NCBI GenBank assembly: GCA_964016885.1
Contig: OZ024753.1
Span: forward strand, 29,016,001 to 29,080,000
DNA: 64,000 nucleotides
Direction of reading: 5' to 3'
Origin: Eledone cirrhosa
Lineage: Eukaryota
This document shows, in pieces, positions 1 to 48,791 of the stretch; the first letter of the stretch is position 1; the number at the start of each line of letters is the position of its first letter. The translations under genes and the position numbers were made by a program. Under the pieces are notes generated by a model, which had not been told where the DNA came from, ran no database searches, and was given only the letters and a program-made list of their open reading frames with translations.

Positions 1-147
1 ATCCTGATCCTTCTTCCGAAATGATATCGGAAGAAACGGACCAGTTGTTGGCCAGAGAGAAAGGTGCCTGACCTCAGTCCTTTCAGACGCGTCCACCATA
101 CAACCTCTTTCGCCATGGCTATTACGCACAGAAACACCGCCTCTGCT

Positions 148-3100
148 TCATCTTTGAAGGGGGGGGGGGCGGGGCGGCTTGATCATTACAATAGACTCGG
201 TGGTCAACCGGATCGGTCCCACCCTTGACAGCAGTTGTTCGACATAGCCCCACAGATCGGCTACGCCCGAGCAGTGTACCAATGCGTGTGCAACGGTTTC
301 CTCGTCGCACACGCATCTGGGACAGATCTTTTTGGCGGGGTCCCTACCCGGGCGCCCGTGTCTGTAGAGCCTTTCTCGAACGGGTAAAGCCCCTCGGTAG
401 CACTGCCAGGCCAGGGACTTCTGGAAGTTGTCCATAGGTCCCGGGCTGAATGTCCTACCGAACAGGCTGGCCAGTTCGTCCTCCTCCATGTCTAGGGCTT
501 CTCCGAGGGCGTCGTCGCACCTGCTGCGTACCAGCCCTCTATAGAATGTTGCGGTGGAGTCTCCACTGATAACCGGATCCGCCTGCCAGAGGGCGGTGAG
601 CGCCTGGGCACACTCAGTGTGCCAGGCGCCCAGTTTTCTCGGTCTTTGCTTGACCCAGGATTGCAGCTCGGTGAGTGAGACGAGTCTGGGAAAGGTTCGT
701 CTCACAAACGAGGCCCACACCGGTTGTCCGGTGAGGAATACGTAGAGGTGCCGTAGCCTTAATGCGTGTTTACGCATCATTAGCCACGGCATCCCCAGCC
801 CTCCTTTCGAAGGGTGTTGACAGCAGATGGATCTCCTCACCATAGGAGCCCGCCTCTTCCAAAGGAATTGGAAGAGCGCGCGCTCCATCTTGGTGAGGGT
901 TTCCCTTGGGCAGGGCACTACGGTCAGGCGGTAGTAGATGACGGACGCTATGTAGGTGTTCGCCACCTCCGCCCGACCTTTCAGGGATAGTTTGCAACTG
1001 GCCCACTTCTGGGTCAGTGCAAACACCCTGTTCGTAACCTCCGCCCAGTTTTTCTCCACCTGGAGGTCCGGTCCGAACCAGACCCCGAGCAACTTCACCG
1101 GGCCCTCCGTCCAGCGTCCGACGACGCCATCGGAGGGCATCGGTCTGCCCCTCCACGTGCCGAGTTGCAAACCGATCGACTTGTCCCGGTTCAGCTTAGC
1201 CCCTGTGAACTTTTCGTACTCCTCCAGTAAGGTGCCGACCGCCTCGATTTCGGAGGCCGTCGACACCATTACTGTCACGTCATCGGCGTAGGCCGACACC
1301 GCTTTCCGCAATCCCGGTTCCAAAGGGATGCCCTGCAACAACTCCAACTTCCGCAGTAGTGGCTCGAGAGTCAACACATACAGAAGGGAGGAGAGAGGGC
1401 ACCCTTGTCGGATGGACCGCGCGATTTTGAACGGCTCCGAGAGGTAGCCGTTCACCTTGACCCTAGAGCAGATGCGGCTGCTGTGCATAGCAGTGATCCA
1501 GCCCCTGAAAACGGGTCCGAAGCCTGCCGCCGCTAGCACCGCATCCAGGTAACCATGGTCGACCCTATCGAACGCCTTAGATTGATCCAAGTTGATCAGA
1601 GCCCCACCAAAGCCGGGTTCGTTCCCAACCCTCTCTATGATGTATCGCATGAGGTGGAGGTTGTCATGGATGGACCTGGACGGGATAGCGCATGTCTGCG
1701 CATCTCCCACCAGGTTGCCCACGACAAGCGCCAACCTCTTTGCTAGCACCTTGGCCAAAATCTGTAACTCTGTATTTAGCAGTGTTATGGGCCTGAAGTT
1801 ACTTATTTCGTCCCCCTTGTTCTCGTCCTTCCTCACTAGCGTGACTACGCCCTTGGTCACAGTACAGGGAATTCTCCCGTTCTGTTGCCAGTTGCAGTAG
1901 ACCGCCTCGAGGAGATCGGGGAACAAGTCCGGCATAGCTAGATATAATTCGTAAGGAAGACCATCGAGACCCGGGGATTTGCGTTTGCCGCATTGGCTCA
2001 GCACGTCCTCTATCTCAGCGGCCGAAATCGGCTCCTCGCAGGACTTCGCCTCCCTGTCCGAGAGGCGCGGCAGGCCGTCGAGGTATGGACCGAAGTCCAC
2101 GTTCCCAACCGGCTCCCCGCCCCTCCCGAACAGTCGGGCAAAGTGCCTTTGAAAGGCCTCACACATCTGCTTAGGCTCAAGAATCGCCCGTCCATCCAGG
2201 TCTCGCAAAGACCGGATGGTGGATTTAGTTCCACTGTTGGCCTCTGTCACGCGGGCCCAGCTAACAGCTTTGGTCCCCTCGTTCCCTAGAGCACGTATTT
2301 TACTTCGGACAACGCAGCCTTCGTGCTTCGCGTCGAAAAACTGGCTCAAAGCCGTTCTCGACGCTAGCACTCTGGCCACGTCGCCGCTTCTAATTGCCTC
2401 TTCTACTCTATCTATTAGCTCCCTTTCCTTCCTATTCCTATCCGCAGCTAGAACCTTACTAAATTCTATCGAGACTACTCTAATCTCTCTCTTTAGAGAT
2501 ACCCACCACCTGCTGTTGACGATCGCTCCAGTCAACCGTTCCTTAACTAACGTACTAATCCGATTCCTGTAGGCTCTACTTGCCGGCAAGGACAAGTTGA
2601 GCTTCCAGTAACCGGGGCCCTGTCTATGAGTTCTGTCAAGGTTGACCATGCAGGTCACTAATTTGTGGTCTGAATAGCCAACCATGCGCATTTTTGGACA
2701 ACTTAAAAAGTCCTTATCCTTAATTCTAACTAAGAACCTATCTAGGTACGACCTAGATGATCCGCTACGATTTGCCCAAGTCCAGGTTGGCGCAGTCGGA
2801 AAATCTAGTCGATATCTATCGGCCAGGTCAAATCGACCGATTAACCCTTTGAGGCTATTACACCCCTCTCTATCGGGGCAGGCCCCTACGTAGTCCCAGC
2901 GTGCATCTAGGATACCATTCCAGTCCCCCACTAATAGCAAGGAGCGGGACGTCCCTAGAAAAGTCTCCAGACGATGGAAGAAGTCCGGCCGCATTGACCC
3001 GAAAGGGCCGTAGGCGGCTACCAACCTAAACGCTCCGCCTTTACCACTGCCAAGGTCCAGAACCACTAGTCGACCCTCCGGGTCCAAATGTACCATCTGT

Positions 3101-3345
3101 GTTGCGAGACCCAGATGTTTTTGCAGCAGAACGACAACTCCACCCCCACCTCCGGGCTGACAGAGAGATGCGTGCATCTCAAAGTCATCAAAGGTGGGGG
3201 CCAGCTGTCGCACGTTGCTGATCCGGGCCTCGCAAATAACCATCACATCTATACGTTGTGACCTGAGGTCATTTAGAAGCATTGCTTGCTTCCAAGTTGA
3301 GCCCAGGCCACGCGCATTTAAACAGCCTACTCTTAGCATAGCCAT
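148..3345 (-). CDS. Tx1 ORF2 (APE endonuclease + reverse transcriptase + CCHC), frameshifted in a G-run at ~159-176
   Basis: First ATG at 3345 (MAMLRVGCLNARGL). APE motifs GDWN, SYLDRF, SDH. RT YADD intact. CPRC..ETVAHALVHC. Copy B reads GGGGGGAGGCGGC where A has a longer G-run, so the true ORF continues past position 1. Confidence 0.92.
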   Translation of the reverse strand: MAMLRVGCLNARGLGSTWKQAMLLNDLRSQRIDVMVICEARISNVRQLAPTFDDFEMHASLCQPGGGGGVVVLLQKHLGLATQMVHLDPEGRLVVLDLGSGKGGAFRLVAAYGPFGSMRPDFFHRLETFLGTSRSLLLVGDWNGILDARWDYVGACPDREGCNSLKGLIGRFDLADRYRLDFPTAPTWTWANRSGSSRSYLDRFLVRIKDKDFLSCPKMRMVGYSDHKLVTCMVNLDRTHRQGPGYWKLNLSLPASRAYRNRISTLVKERLTGAIVNSRWWVSLKREIRVVSIEFSKVLAADRNRKERELIDRVEEAIRSGDVARVLASRTALSQFFDAKHEGCVVRSKIRALGNEGTKAVSWARVTEANSGTKSTIRSLRDLDGRAILEPKQMCEAFQRHFARLFGRGGEPVGNVDFGPYLDGLPRLSDREAKSCEEPISAAEIEDVLSQCGKRKSPGLDGLPYELYLAMPDLFPDLLEAVYCNWQQNGRIPCTVTKGVVTLVRKDENKGDEISNFRPITLLNTELQILAKVLAKRLALVVGNLVGDAQTCAIPSRSIHDNLHLMRYIIERVGNEPGFGGALINLDQSKAFDRVDHGYLDAVLAAAGFGPVFRGWITAMHSSRICSRVKVNGYLSEPFKIARSIRQGCPLSSLLYVLTLEPLLRKLELLQGIPLEPGLRKAVSAYADDVTVMVSTASEIEAVGTLLEEYEKFTGAKLNRDKSIGLQLGTWRGRPMPSDGVVGRWTEGPVKLLGVWFGPDLQVEKNWAEVTNRVFALTQKWASCKLSLKGRAEVANTYIASVIYYRLTVVPCPRETLTKMERALFQFLWKRRAPMVRRSICCQHPSKGGLGMPWLMMRKHALRLRHLYVFLTGQPVWASFVRRTFPRLVSLTELQSWVKQRPRKLGAWHTECAQALTALWQADPVISGDSTATFYRGLVRSRCDDALGEALDMEEDELASLFGRTFSPGPMDNFQKSLAWQCYRGALPVRERLYRHGRPGRDPAKKICPRCVCDEETVAHALVHCSGVADLWGYVEQLLSRVGPIRLTTESIVMIKPPRPPPLQR

Positions 3346-3369
3346 GTTGGTGGTGAAGAGAAAAGGCAC

Positions 3370-5140
3370 TTACCTCTCTGCGTCCCGTGTATCGGGCTGC
3401 ACAATTTCCATTAGGGTGGGGGATGGGTTGTTGGGTGGGGTGGTGGTTTGTGGAAGTGTGGGGGCATCAGTGTATTGTGTGGTTGGGGAGCTTGGAGTTG
3501 TGTGGGTGTTTGGGGAGGGGGTGGGATAGTTTTTTAGGAGGACGCGGTTAATGGGCCCGACGCAGGGGGGACCCACGTCCTCTTTAAAATTGTTTTTTAA
3601 AGTTTTATAGGTGTCCTGTGGGGCCTTAATCATTTTGAGGTGGGGGAAATCCCCTGCCTGGGTGAAGTTAGGCCCTTGTGTTTTTATTAGATTGTTGTTG
3701 TACACAATGTTTAACAGTTTTTTGTTTCTTGTATTTATGTATGTGTATGCATGTTTTTGTTTTTGTGTGGTGTTTTTTGTTTGCTGTTGTTGTGAGCTCT
3801 TTTGTGTTGGTGTCAGTGTTGTTTTGGGGAGGGTTTTTTTTCATTTGTGTGTCTGAGGTGTGTTTTCTTTTTTTTCTTTTGATTGTGTGGAAGTGCTCCT
3901 CCTCGTCTGACGACGAACTAGGGTCATCTTCCGCGTTGGAGGGGAGGGGTATATTTTCGGGTTGTGTTTGCGGTACGGGTGTTTTGGAAATTGTTTTTGT
4001 TTTTTGAGTGGAGGGGATGGGTTGGACATTGTTTTGTTTTGGTTTGAGCTGTGGTGGTTGTTTTTGTAGTGGTGATTGTGTTGGTTGTGCAGTTGTTGGT
4101 GGTGTAGGCAGGATTGGGGTTTTCTTATTAAGTTGGGGACAGACAGCCCTCAGGTGACCTCTGGTTCCGCAGAGGTAACACGAGGGCCGTCTACCCTCAA
4201 CGGTAATGTTGATGAAGGTTAGATCATCCAGTATGACGCGTTCAGAGATCTGGGCGATCCTTTCGGGCCTCATTTGAACTACAAGTTCGAGGCTCGTTCC
4301 ACTGAACGCGTCACCCGATGCCTTTCCCATGGACACCAGCATGTCATCCTCCAGGTCCAGAAAACCTGTCAAAACCCACCATATGTCCATAATCGGCAGG
4401 ATGGTGTGGATTTTTATTTTTTGTGTTCTTCTACCCATGTACGTAGGGTAGAAGGTGTATGCGGTGGATGTGATTGGTTTGATGGACAGTTTCACTGCTG
4501 TGTCCCTGTCCTTCATGAGAATGGATAGACTCCCGTAGAGTCTATCCTTCTGAATGAAGGTGATGTCCTTCATGACGTCTTTTAAAACCAGCTCTATCTC
4601 GCTCTGTGATGGTTGAGCTGGTTTTTTACTTTTGTTCGAGATTGTCCTAAACATGACCGTGTTTAGGAGTCTCTGGCTTTTTAGTTCCGGGGGGGAATGG
4701 ATTGTGAATGAACCATTTTCCCCGTACACTATATATTTTTTCGCATCCGCCAGTAGCTCCTTCGCTTTTGTTATATCTACTGGCAGATAGTCGAGGGTTT
4801 TCCTTGTCGTCTCGGCGAAGGAGAAATTTTGTTTGTTTGTGTTGTTGTTGTCGTTGGTGGTGTTGTTGTTATCATTGTTGTTGTTGTCACCGTTATTGGT
4901 CTTGTTGTTGTTGTTATTGTTATTGGTGTTGTTTTCGTCCATCGCATTGTTGTTGTTGTTGCTGCTGGTTCTTTGGGTTGTTGCCATGGCAACGTCAAGT
5001 TGTCGGTTAACAGGTGGAGAGAATTCTTCCTCTGGCTGACCTTTCTTCTTGACCTCTGCTACTGTGACAGTGGCAGGGGGAAGTTGTAAGTTCATCTTCC
5101 CCTTTCCTCCTTCGAATTTTGGTGAAGAAGCTTCAGCCAT
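3370..5140 (-). CDS. Tx1 ORF1 (nucleic-acid-binding protein), split by one frameshift near 3700-3840
   Basis: ORF 3668..5140 has an Asn-rich N-terminus, CYLCGTRGHLRAVC zinc knuckle and a Pro/Thr/Lys-rich tail. An overlapping open frame continues to the TAA at 3370-3372, directly before ORF2. Confidence 0.8.
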
Positions 5141-5366
5141 TTAAAAAAAATATTGACTCTTCAACAAGAAAAAACTTTTTTTTTTGTTTAACTATTTCGC
5201 CTAAAGGCGTAGAATATTTTGAGAGACTGACCAGATCAAAGTTTGACCTGGCAGTCCCTCTACAAAATGGTACAAAAATTAAAGTTATCAGACAAGAATT
5301 TCTATAGAAATTTAAACAGAACTTACTCAGCAAGTTATACGCGTGTGTCCATCCCAGAGATAGATA

Positions 5367-6356
5367 TATTTCTTTTATTTGCCACTAGGGCATCAAAAGT
5401 GGGACAAATACAAAGGGGGGAGTTTACACAAAAAGGCGTCCTCAATAAGGAGGAGGCAATAACAAAATATAAAAATAAAATAAGATATAACAAAAAATAA
5501 AATTTTTAACAAAATCCTCAATAGAGAGGAGGCGCCTTGGGGGGTCGCACACACCCCCGAAAAAAGTGTGCAACCCTTCTCCTCAGGAGCACAGAGAAGG
5601 GGTGCTCCCTTGGTCTTTCATCTTCCTCACCTATAGTCTGATGTAGAGTGAAGGCCCATTCACACGGGCCATTCTCGCCACTTTCACCCATCTTTCATAG
5701 AAACGGCTGGGGTGCAGCACCTCTCTCTCCATCCTGATCCTTCTTCCGAAATGATATCGGAAGAAACGGACCAGTTGTTGGCCAGAGAGAAAGGTGCCCG
5801 ACCTCAGTCCTTTCAGACGCGTCCACCATACAACCTCTTTCGCCATGGCTATTACGCACAGAAACACCGCCTCTGCTTCATCTTTGAAGGGGGGAGGCGG
5901 CTTGATCATTACAATAGACTCGGTGGTCAACCGGATCGGTCCCACCCTTGACAGCAGTTGTTCGACATAGCCCCACAGATCGGCTACGCCCGAGCAGTGT
6001 ACTAATGCGTGTGCAACGGTTTCCTCGTCGCACACGCATCTGGGACAGATCTTTTTGGCGGGGTCCCTACCCGGGCGCCCGTGTCTGTAGAGCCTTTCTC
6101 GAACGGGTAAAGCCCCTCGGTAGCACTGCCAGGCCAGGGACTTCTGGAAGTTGTCCATAGGTCCCGGGCTGAATGTCCTACCGAACAGGCTGGCCAGTTC
6201 GTCCTCCTCCATGTCTAGGGCTTCTCCGAGGGCGTCGTCGCACCTGCTGCGTACCAGCCCTCTATAGAATGTTGCGGTGGAGTCTCCACTGACAACCGGA
6301 TCCGCCTGCCAGAGGGCGGTGAGCGCCTGGGCACACTCAGTGTGCCAGGCGCCCAG
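5367..6356 (-). mobile_element. 5'-truncated Tx1 copy B (ORF2 C-terminus + 3'UTR)
   Basis: 5731-6356 is almost identical to 1-631. Stop at 5631. 3'UTR ends AATAAAAGAAATA. Flanked by CCCAGAGATAGATA at 5353-5366 and 6352-6365. Confidence 0.93.
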
Positions 6357-6707
6357 AGATAGATAGAAGGTAGATAGATATGTAGGTAGGTAGATAGGTA
6401 GATAGGTAGGTAGATAGGTAGGTAGGTAGATAGGTAGGTAGGTAGATAGGTAGGTAGGTAGATAGGTAGATAGATAGGTAGATAGGTAGGTAGGTAGATA
6501 GGTAGATAGGTAGATAGTTAGGTAGATAGATAGGTAGGTAGATAGGTAGATAGATAGGTAGGTAGGTAGATAGGTAGATAGTTAGGTAGATAGATAGGTA
6601 GATAGTTAGGTAGATAGGTAGGTAGATAGGTAGATAGTTAGGTAGATAGTTAGGTAGATAGTTAGGTAGATAGTTAGGTAGATAGGTAGGTAGATAGGTA
6701 GATAGAT
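6357..6707. repeat. (TAGA/TAGG)n compound tetranucleotide microsatellite, the Tx1 target tract
   Basis: Read directly. Shorter tracts of the same type lie between the following Tx1 pieces (6738-6758, 6884-6939, 7296-7335, 9515-9572). Confidence 0.95.
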
Positions 6708-6737
6708 ATATTTCTTTTATTTGCCACTAGGGCATCA
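6708..6737 (-). mobile_element. Tx1 copy C, ~30-bp extreme 3' end only
   Basis: TTTCTTTTATTTGCCACTAGGGCATCA is identical to the 3' terminus of copy B and sits within the TAGA/TAGG tract. Confidence 0.8.
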
Positions 6738-6758
6738 TAGATAGGTAGGTAGATAGAT

Positions 6759-6883
6759 ATGTTTCTTTTATTTGCCACTAGGGCATCAAAAGTGGGACAA
6801 GTACAAAGGGGGAGTTTACACAAAAAGGCGTCCTCAATAAGGAGGAGGCAATAACAAAATATAAAAATAAAATAAGATATAAC
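6759..6883 (-). mobile_element. Tx1 copy D, ~125-bp 3'UTR fragment
   Basis: Near-identical to 5367-5491. Confidence 0.88.
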
Positions 6884-6939
6884 TAGATAGATAGATAGGT
6901 AGATAGATAGATAGGTAGGTAGATAGGTAGATAGATAGA

Positions 6940-7295
6940 TTTCTTTATTAGCCACAAGGGCGCAACAAGAAAAGGGGACAATACAAAGACATGCCGGGGA
7001 TTTTACATACAGTCGTGTAAAAAATATAAAAACAAACAATTTCAACAATCGAAATCCCCAATAGGGGGGATGCGCCACAAATGGGTTGTTTAATACCCCG
7101 TCGATAGAACAACCCTCAACTCAAGGAGCGTGTTGTGCAAGTGCTCCTTTCTTCCTTTTGCTCTCTTCCTCAACCTTATAAACAGAGAAGGCCCAATCAC
7201 TCGGGCCATTTTCGCTTCATTCACCCACCTTTCAGTAAATTTACTGGGGTGCAGTGCCTCTCTCTCCACCCTGATTCTTCTTCTAAAGTGATACT
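6940..7295 (-). mobile_element. Tx1 copy E, divergent subfamily, 5'-truncated
   Basis: Encodes KYHFRRRIRVEREALHPSKFTERWVNEAKMARVIGPSLFIRL, homologous to the ORF2 end. 3'UTR differs but has a similar GCC-N5-GGC + AATAAA terminus. Confidence 0.85.
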
Positions 7296-7335
7296 TAGAT
7301 AGGTAGATAGATAGGTAGGTAGATAGGTAGGTAGA

Positions 7336-9514
7336 TATGTTTCTTTTATTTGCCACCAGGGCATCAAAAGTGGGACAAGTACAATGGGGGGAGTTTAAAT
7401 AACAAGGCGTCCTCAATAAGGAGGAGGCAATAACAAAATATAAAAATAAAATAAAATATAACAAGATAAAATTTATAACAAAGCCCTCAATAGAGGGGAG
7501 GCGCCTTGGGGGGGGGGGGGGTCACACACACCCCCGAAAAAAAGTGTGCAACCCTTCTCCTCAGGAGCACAGAGAAGGGGTGCTCCCTTGGTCTTTCATC
7601 TTCCTCACCTATAGTCTGATGTAGAGTGAAGGCCCATTCACACGGGCCATTCTCGCCACTTTCACCCATCTTTCATAAAAACGGCTGGGGTGCAGCACCT
7701 CTCTCTCCATCCTGATCCTTCTTCCGAAATGATATCGGAAGAAACGGACCAGTTGTTGGCCAGAGAGAAAGGTGTCTGACCTCAGTCCTTTCAGACGCGT
7801 CCACCATACAACCTCTTTCGCCATGGCTATTACGCACAGAAACACCGCCTCTCCTTCGTTTTTGAAGAGGAGAGGCGGCTTGATCGTTACAATAGACTCG
7901 GTGGTCAACCGGATCGGTCCCACCCTTGACAGCAGTTGTTCGACATAGCCCCACAGATCGGCAATGCCCGAGCAGTGTACCAATGCGTGTGCAACGGTTT
8001 CCTCGTCGCACACGCATCTGGGACAGATCTTTTTCGATGGGTCCCTACCCGGGCGCCCGTGTCTGTAGAGCCTTTCTCGAACGGGCAGATCCCTTCTGTA
8101 GCATTGCCAGGCCAGGGACCTCTGGAAGTTATCCATGGGTCCCGGGCTGAATGTCCTACCGAACAAGTTGGCCAGTTCGTCTTCCTCCATGCCTAGGGCT
8201 TCTCCGAGGGCGTCGTCGCACCTGCTAACCACCAGCCCTCTATAGAATGACGAGGTGGATTCTCCACTGACAGCTGGGTCCGCCTGCCAGAGGGCGGTGA
8301 GCGCCTGGGCACACTCGGTGTGCCATGCGCCCAGTTTTCTCGGTCTTTGCTTGACCCAGGATTGCAGCTCGGTGAGTGAGACGAGTCTGGGAAAGGCTCG
8401 CCTCACAAACGGGGCCCACACCGGTTGACCGGAGAGGAATACCTGGAGGTGCCGTAGCCTTAATGCATGTTTACGTATCATTAGCCACGGCATCCCCAGC
8501 CCTCCTTTCGAAGGGTGTTGACAGCAGATGGATCTGCTCACCATAGGAGCCCGCTTCTTCCAAAGGAATTGGAAGAGTGCGCGCTCCATTTTGGCGAGCG
8601 TTTCCCTTGGGCAAGGCACAACGGTCAGGCGGTAGTAGATGACGGACGCTATATAAGTGTTCGCCACCTCCGCCCGACCTTTCAGGGACAGTTTGCACTC
8701 GGCCCACTTCTGGGTCAGTGCAAACACCCTGTTCGTTACCTCACCCCAGTTCTTCTCCACCTGGAGGTCTGGTCCGAACCAGACCCCGAGCAACTTCACC
8801 GGGCCCTCCGCCCAGCGCCCGACGACGCCATCGGAGGGCATCGATCTGCCCCTCCACGTGCCGAGTTGCAGACCGATCGACTTGTCCCGGTTCAGCTTAG
8901 CCCCTGTAAACCTTTCGTACTCCTCCAGTAAGGTGCCGATCGCCCCGATTTCCGAGGCCGTAGACACCTTTACTGTTACGTCGTTGTAGGCCGACACCGC
9001 TTTCCGCAATCCCGGTTCCAACGGGATGCCCTGCAACAACTCCAACTTCCGCAGCAGTGGCTCTAGAGTCATTACATACAGAAGGGAGGAGAGAGGGCAC
9101 CCTTGTCGGATGGACCGCGCGATTTCGAACGGCTCCGAGAGGTAGCCGTTCACCTTGACCCTAGAGCAGATGCGGCTGCTGTGCATGGCATTGATCCAGC
9201 CCCTGAAAACGGGTCCGAAACCTGCCGCCGCTAGCACCGCATCCAGGTAACCATGGTCGACCCTATCGAATGCCTTAGATTGATCCAAGTTGATCAGGGC
9301 CCCACCAAAGCCGGGTTCGTTCCCAACTCTCTCTATGATGTATCGCATGAGGTGGAGGTTGTCGTTGATGGACCTGGACGGGATAGCACATGTCTGCGCA
9401 TCTCCCACCAGGTTGCCCACGACAAGCGCCAACCCCTTTGCTAGCACCTTGGCCAAAATCTGTAACTCTGTATTTAGCAGAGTTATGGGCCTGAAATTAT
9501 TTATATCGTCCCCC
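7336..9514 (-). pseudogene. Tx1 copy F, 5'-truncated inside the RT; catalytic YADD changed to YND
   Basis: Aligns to copy A from ~1816 downward with scattered substitutions. AVSAYNDVTV versus AVSAYADDVTV. Same 3'UTR as copy B. Confidence 0.92.
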
Positions 9515-9572
9515 GGTAGATAGGTAGGTAGGTAGATAGGTAGGTAGATAGGTAGGTAGATATGTAGATAGA

Positions 9573-9613
9573 TATGTTTCTTTATTAGCCACAGGGGCAC
9601 AAAAGAAGGGGAT
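9573..9613 (-). mobile_element. Tx1 copy G, ~40-bp 3' end resembling subfamily E
   Basis: TTTCTTTATTAGCCACAGGGGCACAAAAGAAGGGGA resembles 6940-6978. Confidence 0.7.
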
Positions 9614-10532
9614 ATGTAGATAAATAGAAAGATAGATAAATACAAGAGTAGTTAGAAAGATAGATAAAAAGATAGATAAATACAGATACCAAAAAACAAA
9701 CAAAAAAACAAACATGAATGGAAAGAAAGATATATGGAAAAACACCGAGATGGAATGAAAGAAATGCATGAATAAATAAATAATTAATAAGAACAAGAGA
9801 ATGAAATAAAGAAGTGAAGATATATTAAATGAAAGATATATTGACAGAAAAAAAATACATACATAAAAAGATCGAAAGCACGAATTGAATAACCACTTCG
9901 GATCAAAATATGGCCATCGAAATGTTTGGATAACACTCAACTGCTGATAAATCTCCTGTCGGAATCTTTCTTGTTAACAGTCGGAATCGTAAAGTAAAAC
10001 ATGACAACTACAATCTAGTTATCATAAAACTTACTCAACCTAACTTTATACTCATCTACAAGAGATACTTGAAGGTTGTGATTAAAAAGGTTTCTTTTAA
10101 GAGATACTGTAACTAGATAGTTTCAAATGTCTCCTCTAAACCAACATCTCTTGCTGAAGTACCAAAGAATAATCAACAACAACTGTAACAACAATATCTT
10201 TGTGAAAAATGCTATTTTACTACATTGAGAAAACGAAGCTATGAAAAATACTTCTTTCTTCCAAAAATTATCTCTGAGACATACATCTCTCACCATTTCT
10301 TCACAACACATTGTCTAATTTCTAGATCTGTACTAAATAAGTATCGTCCTTTTGCCTTTCCACAAATGCCTCTATCCCCGCTGCTAAAAGTCTCGCAGTG
10401 GTGAGGGAAATTGTGGCTCAATAAAGGAGCCAATGGTAGTGTCTCTATGTAGTTGATTGGCATGCTAAAAATAGTAACATCTTTCTCAGATCACACTCTA
10501 CTTTATTAGAGTGTGATCTAATCCAAGATAAT

Positions 10533-10717
10533 TGTTTCTACTTTAGGCACAAGGCCAGCAATTACCCAGTGCATTACTGGTACTTTATTTTATCGACCCC
10601 GTAAGGATGAAAGGCAAAGTCAACCTCGGCGGGATTTGAACTCAGATCGTAAAGGGACGTAACTATGCTGGAAAGCATGGCGTCCGACCCTCTACTGATA
10701 CTGCCAATCCACCGCCC
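10533..10717 (-). mobile_element. tRNA-derived SINE with a Meta-domain-like core
   Basis: B-box GAGTTCAAATCC and core GCCTTTCATCCTTACGGGGTCGATAAAATAAAGTACCAG. 16-bp TSD TCTA(A/G)TCCAAGATAAT. Related copies at ~32140-32260, 33340-33455, 35880-35945, 42050-42225, 44935-45105 (TSD ATAAACAAAGAATAAT), 49225-49315, 54133-54220, 60615-60765. Confidence 0.8.
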
Positions 10718-11477
10718 TCTAGTCCAAGATAATATCTAAAGAAAAACATTGAATGGTCACATTTTATTTCTCATCTTCGCTGTTATTTTTCGTGCACTCA
10801 ATGCATTGTTTAAATTGCCTGAATGCACTAACTTTACTCATCTATTTATGTACGAAGTGCAGAGCTTTCGAGACTAGTGGAGGTAAAGAAGGAACAAATA
10901 ATGACTATTGGGTTGTTTTCAAGTTTGAGACATAATCCAAAAGCTAGCAATAGAATGGCTTGTGCCTTCGGGGTGGGGACTGTATGTATGTGTGGCATGT
11001 GTGCGTGCAAGTTAAGAAAAACATAAACACAGCATGAGCCAAGTCGAATCAAAATCGCGACTCATTCAATTTTACGCTACATATAAACTTTGTAAATATA
11101 TAAACAGTGCAATCGATATTCACAGCCTGTTTTGTCAATATATAGCCTATACGAGAAATCAATATGCCTTTGTTTCTCAGTCTACCTGCAACATATCTGT
11201 TTTTACATATATTTTTCCAAACTGATTAATTATTTTTCAGTCCATCTCTAAGATATATCATACAATTGCGTTTTTTTTCTTTCAACTATCCATTATTAAA
11301 CCGCTATCAACTTCCATTATTAAACCGCTCGATGAATGCAACGCAATACCAAACACGGAACGAAATTCAACCTTCCAGAAATGACAGCAAATTAGTTTAA
11401 CTGAATATATGTAGCCAACCAATCGCAAACTTACTAACGAGAACCAGATTTGTAAAGACCTCAGTGTATGCGCACGG

Positions 11478-11508
<31 letters not shown>

Positions 11509-11574
11509 TATATATGTGTGTGTGTGTGTGTATACATATTCATATACACACAGACACACACACACAAATGTCTA

Positions 11575-12009
11575 TGTCTAAGGCGGGTAAAATTCCCAAG
11601 ATCCATGGACGAGTTCTCTCCAACGGTCTCTGTCCCTCATTATCGCTGCCATGTCCTGCATCTCCAACAGTGGAGTCTGTGCTGCTGTACGGGTCTGAGA
11701 CTTGGACACTGACCAAGAAACTCACTCAGATGGTGGATGGGTGTTACACGAGAATGCTGAGGATGGCTCTGAACATTAATCAGTATACACTGAGGAAGAA
11801 AAACTCAGAGCTGTATGGGAGCATCCCAAAAGTCAGCTCAAAAGTGACACAGAGGAGACTGAGGTTAGCTGGACATGCTCACCAACATCCAGAGTTGACA
11901 TTACACTCAGTACTCATTTGGGAGCCCATACATGGACACACTAGAAGAGGAAGACCAAGGTTAACGTATGTTGATGCCCTAAGGACAGACACTGGTCTGT
12001 TGGAGATAC
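11575..12009. mobile_element. RTE-clade LINE fragment with an internal inversion
   Basis: Plus-strand SVLLYGSETWTLTK...RMLRMALNI...RRLRLAGH...[16 protein letters not shown] is the RT C-terminus. 11575-11670 is the reverse complement of the family 3' end seen at 18190-18290. Confidence 0.85.
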
Positions 12010-12148
12010 ACACATATATATATATATATACACATATAGAGTATTTTAAGAAGCGTCGAGTGAGTTTTGAGTATAGAAGAACAGCATAAGTTGAGGAAGA
12101 ATGCTCCTTGACGGAAAAAGTGGACAGCGTCAACCGTGTGATATATTT

Positions 12149-12409: not shown

Positions 12410-12609
12410 NNNNNNNNNNNNNNNNNNNNNNNNNNNNNNNNNNNNNNNNNNNNNNNNNNNNNNNNNNNNNNNNNNNNNNNNNNNNNNNNNNNNNNNNNNN
12501 NNNNNNNNNNNNNNNNNNNNNNNNNNNNNNNNNNNNNNNNNNNNNNNNNNNNNNNNNNNNNNNNNNNNNNNNNNNNNNNNNNNNNNNNNNNNNNNNNNNN
12601 NNNNNNNNN
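12410..12609. other. Assembly gap (200 N)
   Basis: Run of N. Confidence 0.99.
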
Positions 12610-12831: not shown

Positions 12832-14960
<2,129 letters not shown>

Positions 14961-15368
14961 TGGTGGCTGCCAACTCGTTTTCGAGTACGGCCACTACTTT
15001 ATATCCATGTAGGAGAACCCCTACCGTTGCGCTGAACGAGTGTGACTTTTTAGTCCAGCCAGCGACTTGAAAACTCTGGTACAAACACTACACCTATGAC
15101 AACTATTAACACACAGTGCTGGGCCCATGGTACCATGTGACGACAAGTGCAGAGATCTCCAGATATAAAGCAATGCCTGTGCCGTGAAGCTTTTATAGTG
15201 AGCAAAGGCACTGCACAAAGCCAGTCCCACTCTCTTAACCAAGATGATATTTACCTAAAAGAAGAACAAGTCAACATCATTGGATACCATCAGGGTTGCA
15301 GGTGCTATATCAGAGTTTTCCTTCTCCTAGAATTCTGCCTTGACAAAGGCTAAGGGGTCATCTCTCCC
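14961..15368 (-). mobile_element. Short RTE-derived non-autonomous element (5'UTR-like part + ORF 3' end)
   Basis: Encodes the C2H2 finger [19 protein letters not shown], typical of RTE C-termini. 3' end ...CTCGAAAACGAGTTGGCAGCCACCA. A second truncated copy lies at 16945-17090. Confidence 0.6.
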
Positions 15369-15369
15369 A

Positions 15370-16125
15370 ATACATACATATATATATATATATATATACA
15401 TACATACATACATATAGACATACATACATACATATATATAGACATACATATATATACATACATACATACATATATATACATACATACATATATATACATA
15501 TACATACATATATACATATACATACATATATACATATACATACATATATATACATACATACATATACATATACATACATACATATACACATATACATACA
15601 TACACATACATACATACACACATATACATACATACATATATATATACATACATACACACACACATACATATATACATATACATACATACATATATACATA
15701 CATACATATATATACATACATACATATATACACACACATACACACACATATACATACATACATATATATATACATACATATATACACACACATACATATA
15801 CATACATACATATATACACATACATACATATACACATATATATACACATATATATATATACATACATATACATATATACATATACATACACACACATACA
15901 TACATACATATACATATATATATATACATATATATATATACATATATATATATACATATATATACATATACATACATACATATACATATATATACATATA
16001 CATATACATACATACATATACATACATATACACATACATATATACACATATATATATACATACATACATACATACATACATATACATACATACATATATA
16101 TACACATACATACATATATATACAC

Positions 16126-16170
<45 letters not shown>

Positions 16171-16944
16171 CACATACATACATATATATACATACATACA
16201 TACACATACACATACATACATATATATACATACATATATACACACATATATATACATATACATATACATACATATATATATACATATACATATACATACA
16301 CATATACATACATATATACATACATATATACATATATATATATACATACATACATATATATATACATACATATATATATACATACATATATATATACATA
16401 CATATACATATACATACATATATATACATATATATACACACACACATATACATACATATATATATATACATACATATATATATATACATACATATATACA
16501 CACATATACATACACACATATATACATACATACATATATATATACACACATACATATATATATACATACATACATATACACATACATACATACATATATA
16601 TATACATACATACACACATACATACACACATACACACACACATACATACATACACACATATACATATACACATATATATACATACACATATACATACATA
16701 TACATATACACACATATATACATACACACATATATACATATATATATACATACACATATATATACATATATATATACATACATATATACATACATATACA
16801 TACACATACATATACATATACATACATATATATATACATACATATATATATATACATACATATATATATACATACATACACATACACATACATACACATA
16901 TACATACATGCATGTATACATACATACATATATATATACATACA
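15370..16944. repeat. ~1.6-kb degenerate (TA/CA/TACA)n tract
   Basis: Read directly. Confidence 0.97.
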
Positions 16945-17092: not shown

Positions 17093-17415
17093 TTGCTTTA
17101 CAACGTCACGGGCTTTATAAGCTGGCAATCTCTATCTTGCTTTACAACGTCACGGGCTTTATAAGCTGGCCATCTCTATCTTGCTTTACAACGTTACGGG
17201 CTTTATAAGCTGGCCATCTCTATCTTGCTTTACAACGTTACGGGCTTTATAAGCTGGCAATCTCTATCTTGCTTTACAACGTCACGGGCTTTATAAGCTG
17301 GCCATCTCTATCTTGCTTTACAACGTTACGGGCTTTATAAGCTGGCCATCTCTATCTTGCTTTACAACGTTACGGGCTTTATAAGCTGGCAATCTCTATC
17401 TTGCTTTACAACGTT
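17093..17415. repeat. 44-bp minisatellite, 7.3 copies
   Basis: Unit TTGCTTTACAACGT(C/T)ACGGGCTTTATAAGCTGGC(A/C)ATCTCTATC starts at 17093, 17137 ... 17401. Confidence 0.95.
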
Positions 17416-18037
17416 GCTTTATGAATCACCCTAATAGGTTCAGTATCCCAGTAGCGATATCTCAACAACAATACACCAACTGCAGACCGAGGTTATCATC
17501 AGTCTAATATTTATCAAGAGCACTTAAGAAAAGTATACGGCAAACGTCTCTGTATGTATGTATGTATGTATGTATGTATGTATGTATGTATGTATGTATG
17601 TATGTATGTATGTATGTATGTATATTATATATATATGTGTAGATAGATAGATAATCATTCATACACAAACACCACATATACACACACACACATTATATAT
17701 GTGTGTGTGTGTGTTTGCGGAAAGTAAACAGTCGATTAAGTACAATGAAAATTTATGTATATCAGTTACACACACAGAAACACATGTGTGTATGTGTGTG
17801 TATATATATATAAACACTTCCTGAATGTACGGCAGAGATAATTGTAAGATGCTGATATGATCAAGAATGATTTGCGATAAGGTGTCAAAAGAACATAAAA
17901 TGGAACGGAAATATTTAAACAAAGCTCTGGTTTTCGATTTCATATGTTTTCATCATTACCTTATATCCGTGAGTAAATGTTCTATTGTTGTGCTGACTTT
18001 ATTTGGCACACACACCACACACATATATATATATATA

Positions 18038-46779: not shown

Positions 46780-46896
46780 GTCTGGCAGATCTAATTTATT
46801 AAAAACAGAGTGAATTGGGTCACATGGGTCTATATGGTAATACTGATTCACTTTCTCAAGCTATTTGAAAAATTGGAAGACACATATATATTTACA

Positions 46897-48791
<1,895 letters not shown>

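Follow-up and report, generated by a model that had tools for sequence, protein, structure and literature searches.

How did seven pieces of one type of long interspersed nuclear element (LINE) come to lie in a single GATA/GGTA microsatellite? The question arises in a 64,000-nt window of the Eledone cirrhosa genome (GenBank assembly GCA_964016885.1, contig OZ024753.1, forward-strand positions 29,016,001 to 29,080,000; "the window" means this whole stretch throughout). The original prediction of seven minus-strand LINE pieces in one array is confirmed, with lengths ranging from 27 nt to more than 5.3 kb. Reading from the sequence, we consider it probable that they belong to a Tx1-type family specific for (TATC/TACC)n, whose copies would have arrived singly by target-primed reverse transcription following a nick at TAGATA^G.

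All seven copies are on the minus strand. Copy A (1-5357) is a near full-length Tx1-type LINE with its 3' end beyond the window start. It is followed by B, a 5'-truncated copy of 988 nt plus a terminal TA (5369-6356; 5367-6356 with the TA), C, with 27 nt plus TA (6711-6737; 6709-6737), and D, with 122 nt plus CA (6762-6883; 6760-6883). Then come E, with 356 nt plus TC (6940-7295; 6938-7295), F, with 2175 nt plus CA (7340-9514; 7338-9514), and G, with 36 nt plus CA (9577-9612; 9575-9612), where E and G represent a second subfamily. Successive copies from A to G are separated by TAGA/TAGG spacers of 9, 352, 22, 54, 42 and 60 nt, the longest being a plus-strand TAGA/TAGG(/TAGT) microsatellite at 6357-6708 between B and C. 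Past G, the plus strand continues as a degenerate (TAGA)n flank (9613-9682; Tandem Repeats Finder (TRF) 9617-9682, 16.5 units, 68% matches), which, judging by TRF and the junction anatomy, belongs to no visible copy's tail and has no copy behind it. This outer flank is likely the old host array.

Every visible 3' end (6/6) reads AATAAA(A)GAAA, then two nucleotides (CA in three copies, TA in two, TC in one), then TATCTA(T/C)CT, and none has a poly(A) run. These ends had been described as running directly into the repeat, which is right apart from the two intervening nucleotides. A check for 5' junctions lacking GATA found the repeat abutting 7/7 of them in the window, as well as 6/6 3' junctions, the latter all in the same phase. 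The six 5' truncation points are all different. Flanks resembling target-site duplications (TSDs) of 14-20 nt are present at all six copies with both ends in view, with best matches of 14/14 in B, 17/18 in C, 13/14 in D (10 nt perfect), 18/18 in E, 19/20 in F and 15/16 in G. Duplications, variable 5' truncation and a constant 3' end together form the signature of target-primed insertion.

Two of these TSDs contain more than the common repeat. That of B, CCCAGAGATAGATA on the plus strand, is identical at 5353-5366 (the 3' side, overlapping A's 5' end) and 6352-6365, and it includes the non-repeat letters CCCAG, which occur at 9 of 5353 positions in A. That of G, GATATGTAGATA(G/A)ATA, lies at 9559-9574 and 9611-9626 and carries a rare TATG unit on both sides; the TSD of E lies at 6920-6937 and 7296-7313. 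Microhomology is seen at the 5' junctions of B (the five letters CCCAG) and G (GA), and B appears to have inserted beside A's 5' end, joining through CCCAG. When TSD boundaries were scanned, assigning two nucleotides to the element gave the score peak in 5/6 copies, while E peaked at one (19 vs 18). The true left-right pairing of flanks scores 88. Of 720 permutations, 24 do as well, and with within-spacer pairings dropped, 2 of 309 do.

Public sequencing runs extend the picture slightly. Part of B occurs in 20 of 24 listed runs, none of the listed runs holding B being an RNA run, and four (X1, X5, X7 and X22) were compared with window positions 5050-6350. X1 yielded 6280 matching contigs, which also cover the 5' untranslated region (UTR) of A (5050-5357), and in X1 the depth over the 3' kilobase exceeds that over the 5' UTR by about 10-fold or more, which 5' truncation predicts, although this gives no copy number. 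Among its contigs are two head-to-tail joints absent from the window, in which copies truncated 296 and 334 nt from their 3' ends are followed by 16- and 10-nt GATA spacers and then by the next copy's 3' end. X1 is possibly the window's own source sample, so these joints would represent other loci or alleles rather than other species. Together with the junction anatomy, they support the proposal that each TSD regenerates the target. X5 (29 low-depth contigs) and X7 (three) were not taken to show that other species carry the family; one X7 contig, at a depth of 2.7, begins with GATATA plus the 3' end.

Where would the nick fall? In all six cases the 3'-side TSD copy ends in TAGATA and the 5'-side copy is followed by G, which would put the nick on the GATA strand, at GATA^G. 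A TAGA unit stands immediately ahead of it in 6/6, compared with 56/129 among spacer units (rough P 0.007). Three copies have a TSD mismatch close to the junction (at 7 nt in C, 3 nt in F and 4 nt in G), with purer GATA on the 3' side; the mismatch in D, 11 nt out, runs in the opposite direction. These few cases suggest that the element RNA may end in one templated TATC unit, analogous to what is proposed for SART1Bm and R1Bm, and the TSDs would then be 4 nt shorter. A templated TATC tail of very short length is thus also compatible with the junctions, so RNA-DNA pairing may contribute to targeting. The junctions and the X1 joints support target-primed insertion into pre-existing repeat, whereas genome-wide specificity, and an endonuclease acting as sole determinant of the target, are putative.

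The same mismatches bear on a stronger version of the tail idea, in which the element itself supplied the GATA/GGTA runs as long 3' tails, RNA-tail pairing directs new copies and the endonuclease is loose. RNA templating predicts the purer GATA on the 3' side, all six 3' ends enter the repeat in one phase, a copy borders 9 of the window's 10 TAGR runs, and a short target-like 3' end is reported to lift accurate priming in SART1Bm from 36% to 76% (PMC7265360). However, the repeat at B's 3' end is only 9 nt long, and in both B and G the informative TSD directly follows the two-nucleotide terminus, leaving no room for a long tail (about one unit at most). The non-repeat letters in the TSDs of B and G and the degenerate host TAGA flank without a copy behind it therefore argue against a long element-made tail, as do the X1 spacers of only 10 and 16 nt. 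We regard long self-made tails as unlikely.

The copies themselves show whether the array could instead have grown by tandem duplication, or been misassembled, in a repeat-rich region. At least two subfamilies had been predicted, and identity distinguishes at least three lineages: A/B/C/D, F and E/G. A, B, C and D are mutually 98-100% alike (A and B are identical in 622 of 633 columns, D and B in 121 of 123), F matches B at 93.5%, E matches B at 63% in the 3' UTR and 80% in the coding part, and G matches E at 33 of 39 positions, giving a divergence range of 2-37% among copies. Between A and F there are 45 synonymous and 37 non-synonymous codon changes, with 458 codons unchanged. Neutral decay is expected to produce roughly one synonymous change for every three non-synonymous ones, so the copies have been under purifying selection, and A and F likely descend from separate active lineages.

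This divergence and selection argue against local duplication, and the differing truncation points likewise mean that the copies are not simple duplicates. With six distinct 5' ends, identities from 63% to 98%, the synonymous excess between A and F and differing terminal dinucleotides, we consider duplication or misassembly of the array highly improbable, even though there is a 200-N assembly gap at 12410-12609 and no array-spanning long read among the runs compared. Copy C is the exception. TRF reports C and its spacer as a 51-nt tandem unit with 94% matches, so C, which could be an abortive insertion, may instead have arisen by local duplication of D's end and not be a seventh insertion; we find this plausible for C alone, while leaning towards insertion.

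If the element were non-specific, the locus would be a passive sink (a hot spot or tolerated site) and the repeat incidental. Passive accumulation has been proposed for Drosophila Waldo-A/B near CA repeats (PMC3812793), and our evidence comes mostly from one locus. Yet the copies share one strand and their 3' ends one phase, X1 holds two more GATA-spaced joints, and the other 54 kb of the window, with its 222 (TA)n runs, is free of pieces. As predicted, blastn and tblastn found no other piece of the family in 9613-64000, and short-word blastn outside the array gave AT-rich low-complexity matches only. A 17-nt 3'-end pattern, allowing up to three mismatches, matches the window eight times (0.41 expected): at the six known copies and at two A-rich partial matches (33931 and 59419). 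We therefore give the passive sink little credence.

The abundance of other simple repeats, which had been put at kilobases of (TA)n, (CA)n and (GA)n, holds for (TA)n alone: perfect runs of at least six units number 222 (4234 bp) for (TA)n, 56 (898 bp) for CA/TG and 9 (194 bp) for GA/TC. TAGA/TAGG runs of at least three units number ten, nine inside the array; the tenth, (TAGA)3 at 17640-17651, is empty of LINE.

The coding content of A identifies the type of element. Its second open reading frame (ORF2; minus strand, 148-3345, ATG at 3345) encodes an APE endonuclease, a reverse transcriptase (RT) and a zf-RVT domain (Pfam RVT_1 E 4.6e-26, Exo_endo_phos 4.5e-08, zf-RVT 3.6e-05, the last below its cut-off), and the motifs LNARG, ICE, YGP, GDWN, SYLD, SDH and YADD are all present. 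A frameshift in a G-run near 158-176, 7 nt longer than that of B, cuts this ORF short. F encodes the RT to the C-terminus, its YADD motif showing a one-codon loss. An ORF2 profile searched against PDB matched human L1 ORF2p (E 2e-105) far ahead of R2 (1e-35). With an N-terminal APE endonuclease, an RT and human L1 ORF2p as its closest solved relative, this is a LINE of the L1 group. The endonuclease in a single-sequence search against PDB had no match at E below 0.001, and an AlphaFold model of it was too poor to use (mean pLDDT 57).

ORF1 (minus strand, 3668-5140, 490 aa) has one CCHC zinc knuckle at aa 320-336, with the pattern CX2CX4HX4C (Pfam zf-CCHC E 0.039, below the curated cut-off), between low-complexity ends that are N/T-rich and K/T/Q-rich. 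Its Atlas look-alikes, scoring 0.90-0.92, are mostly CCHC proteins from Mollusca and Arthropoda. Pfam found no Transposase_22 in ORF1 at E up to 1, and an RNA recognition motif (RRM) was likewise undetected. ORF1 proteins of the Tx1 clade are of the RRM/zf-CCHC type and not Transposase_22 (PMC5203782), and it is through the knuckle that this ORF1 fits.

The closest named protein relatives come from cephalopods: Argonauta hians (63%), Acanthosepion pharaonis (48%) and Octopus bimaculoides (47%). A metagenome scan, from which the best 80 of 335 loci were kept, returned distant relatives at 23-36% identity; two of these 80 hold at least three TAGR units, and none of 419 relative proteins contains a translated TATC/TACC run. 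In three loci, including the top match, the element is preceded by the opening 33-51 nt of U2 snRNA, at Keno-like 5' junctions (L001 701-751, L003 554-604, L011 1715-1747), and in a fourth (L005 5892-6010) an A-tailed 3' end runs into 5S rRNA. These flanks mark the four as target-specific Tx1-type elements, Keno-like where the target is U2; the 5S-associated one we take to be Mutsu-like. No protein relative was found in genome contigs, and viral contigs gave neither a protein relative nor a 3'-end pattern match. The short 3'-end pattern had 120 prokaryotic matches in genome contigs, none followed by TATCTA, which we took as chance.

Quick trees (51 rows for the RT, 28 for a longer alignment, with P0142 and P0069 dropped as too short) contained no named Repbase Tx1 element or vertebrate L1. 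The window's elements form a group with SH-aLRT 100, which the RT tree links to the U2 group with support 84 and the longer one through an unresolved fork. Both trees place the family with rows such as the U2- and 5S-inserted elements, away from rows with an inferred plant-like label, and leave deep forks unresolved. The family is thus likely a member of the Tx1 clade, as far as its sequence allows placement.

Three further observations concern the relatives. A related LINE contig (L008 4174-4209) ends in (ATTG)n soon after AATAAA and an A-rich stretch, possibly a (GATT)n target or tail. The last 100 nt of L016 look tRNA-like on the reverse strand, just after the LINE 3' end, where an Rfam gathering search found nothing. 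A 133-aa fragment 59% identical to ORF2 (P0216), on a 404-nt contig labelled Escherichia coli, is probably contamination.

Several points weigh against (TATC/TACC)n specificity. The evidence comes from a single locus and from two contig joints, with summed depths of 12.5 and 3.3, and is not a genome-wide sample. Among the loose contig ends listed (12 of 266), none lies at the 3' terminus, so other flanks are neither confirmed nor excluded, and the raw-read run X22, with one read among 12.8 million records, contributes neither flanks nor support for the family in that organism. As for the TSDs, 4/6 lie wholly within two-letter repeat, where slippage makes neighbouring spacers alike, 4/6 contain a mismatch, their lengths vary, 6/25 cross pairings also score at least 11, and the permutation test was devised after the data had been inspected. 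Most inter-copy spacers exceed the length of one TSD. Finally, neither tree places the family beside a target-identified Tx1 group with strong support.

How would target-specific insertion have built the array? Probably the element's endonuclease opens the GATA strand at ...TAGATA^G, and the freed ...GATA-3' end would prime cDNA synthesis. The template would be an RNA whose 3' end reads AAUAAA(A)GAAAYA and probably carries a further UAUC unit that pairs with the primer. A cut in the second strand about 10-20 nt away would duplicate the target at each event, and 5' joining could use microhomology, such as CCCAG in B and GA in G. Each TSD would leave a fresh site on both sides, allowing later copies and other subfamilies to pile into the array, while slippage would lengthen some spacers.

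An inverted motif, GCC-N5-GGC, lies just upstream of AATAAA (window 5369-5395 and five other ends). It is kept in 6/6, with changes confined to the 5-nt loop, and a hairpin is predicted in 4/5 ends folded; with z-scores of -0.6 to -3.1, an invariant stem and no covariation, the ends give no evidence of structure. The motif is a possible RT recognition signal.

Is such a target new? Kibi targets (TC)n and Koshi (TTC)n, and crocodilian Tx1 families target (TTCC)n or (TTTC)n (PMC4494074); Togen targets (TG)n (PMC4640811), and a review lists ACAY, AC, TC, TTC and TAA among LINE microsatellite targets, adding that the mechanism of microsatellite targeting is not well understood (PMC3812793). Like Kibi, Koshi and the crocodilian families, the family in the window is a Tx1-type APE-RT LINE in a microsatellite that is pyrimidine-rich on the element's sense strand. 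In contrast, its target, TATC/TACC, is in neither paper's text lists (PMC4494074, PMC3812793), and its host is a cephalopod rather than a vertebrate, the comparison being by target description and not by sequence. Its flanks are TATC/TACC, and the window's nine GA/TC runs are empty of it.

Keno (PMC4494074, PMC4640811) is similar in that the three U2-flanked loci rank with the best metagenome relatives, at 29-31% identity, and that the L001 3' end is AATAAAAGAAA-like, resembling that of the window's family. The target differs, being U2 snRNA for Keno and a GATA repeat here, and Rfam found no family in the window. SART1Bm and R1Bm are also repeat-specific APE LINEs, and pairing between the nicked strand and a short, target-like 3' end of the RNA has been proposed for them; however, they belong to the R1 clade and target the telomeric repeat and 28S rDNA, and SART1Bm has a poly(A) tail (PMC7265360). 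As a precedent for such specificity, Tx1L-EN nicks almost only its own target (PMC1950540).

The locus was also predicted to be a self-renewing landing pad. TSDs do appear to regenerate the target, but this is not new in kind, since tandem SINEU-3 copies sandwiching a TSD have been described (PMC4494074). SINEU-3/Tx1-Mar insertions are likewise sequential and stacked, with a TSD of 16 nt between them compared with 14-20 nt here; their target is a Mariner transposon, whereas here seven pieces of several subfamilies occupy one microsatellite array.

A target-specific family has been defined as one in which a single sequence type makes up more than 20% of genomic flanks (PMC4494074). The TATCTA flank is found at 6/6 ends in the window and at two joints in X1, which is not a genome-wide sample for that threshold. 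In Octopus vulgaris there are 80 L1-Tx1 families covering 56.3 Mb, 13 of them recently active (PMC13282606); the L1-Tx1 text and supplement of that paper, as covered, held no target analysis, and the covered parts of PMC9115989 and PMC10294476 have nothing on a Tx1 target. The full-text literature yielded no report of a GATA/TATC-targeting LINE, a scope that excludes Repbase/Dfam and the supplements and Fig. 3 labels of PMC4494074, and a prior database entry for a GATA target is quite possible. The GATA target therefore appears new, while microsatellite-specific Tx1 families and TSD-separated stacks were already known.

If the specificity is real, GATA tetranucleotide repeats would become a new target of the few sequence-specific APE endonucleases, which would also gain a new host group; it is not a new kind of system, as both the strategy and the stacking are known. 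The locus predicts a precise nick, at TAGATA^G, and its endonuclease domain retains intact catalytic motifs; it also has a bearing on GATA marker use and repeat assembly in cephalopods. A bolder and rather doubtful extension is that one cephalopod Tx1 lineage acquired GATA specificity independently of the fish and crocodile microsatellite families, primes through a one-unit UAUC end instead of poly(A), and both invades and makes GATA/GGTA sequence (10-20 nt per insertion), in which case LINE-only arrays would occur genome-wide and account for a share of GATA loci.

The rest of the window holds a few other features. The assembly gap lies beside a 4.1-kb (TA)-rich array (12835-16942), and a second (TA/CA) array of 1.9 kb occupies 46884-48785. 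A tandem repeat at 17093-17415 has a 44-bp unit in 7.3 copies with 97% matches. A short repeat at 10540-10700 may resemble the abundant octopus SINE (short interspersed nuclear element). A plus-strand frame at 11415-12089, with no Pfam match at E 0.001, resembles the C-terminal part of another LINE's ORF2, presumably RTE-like.

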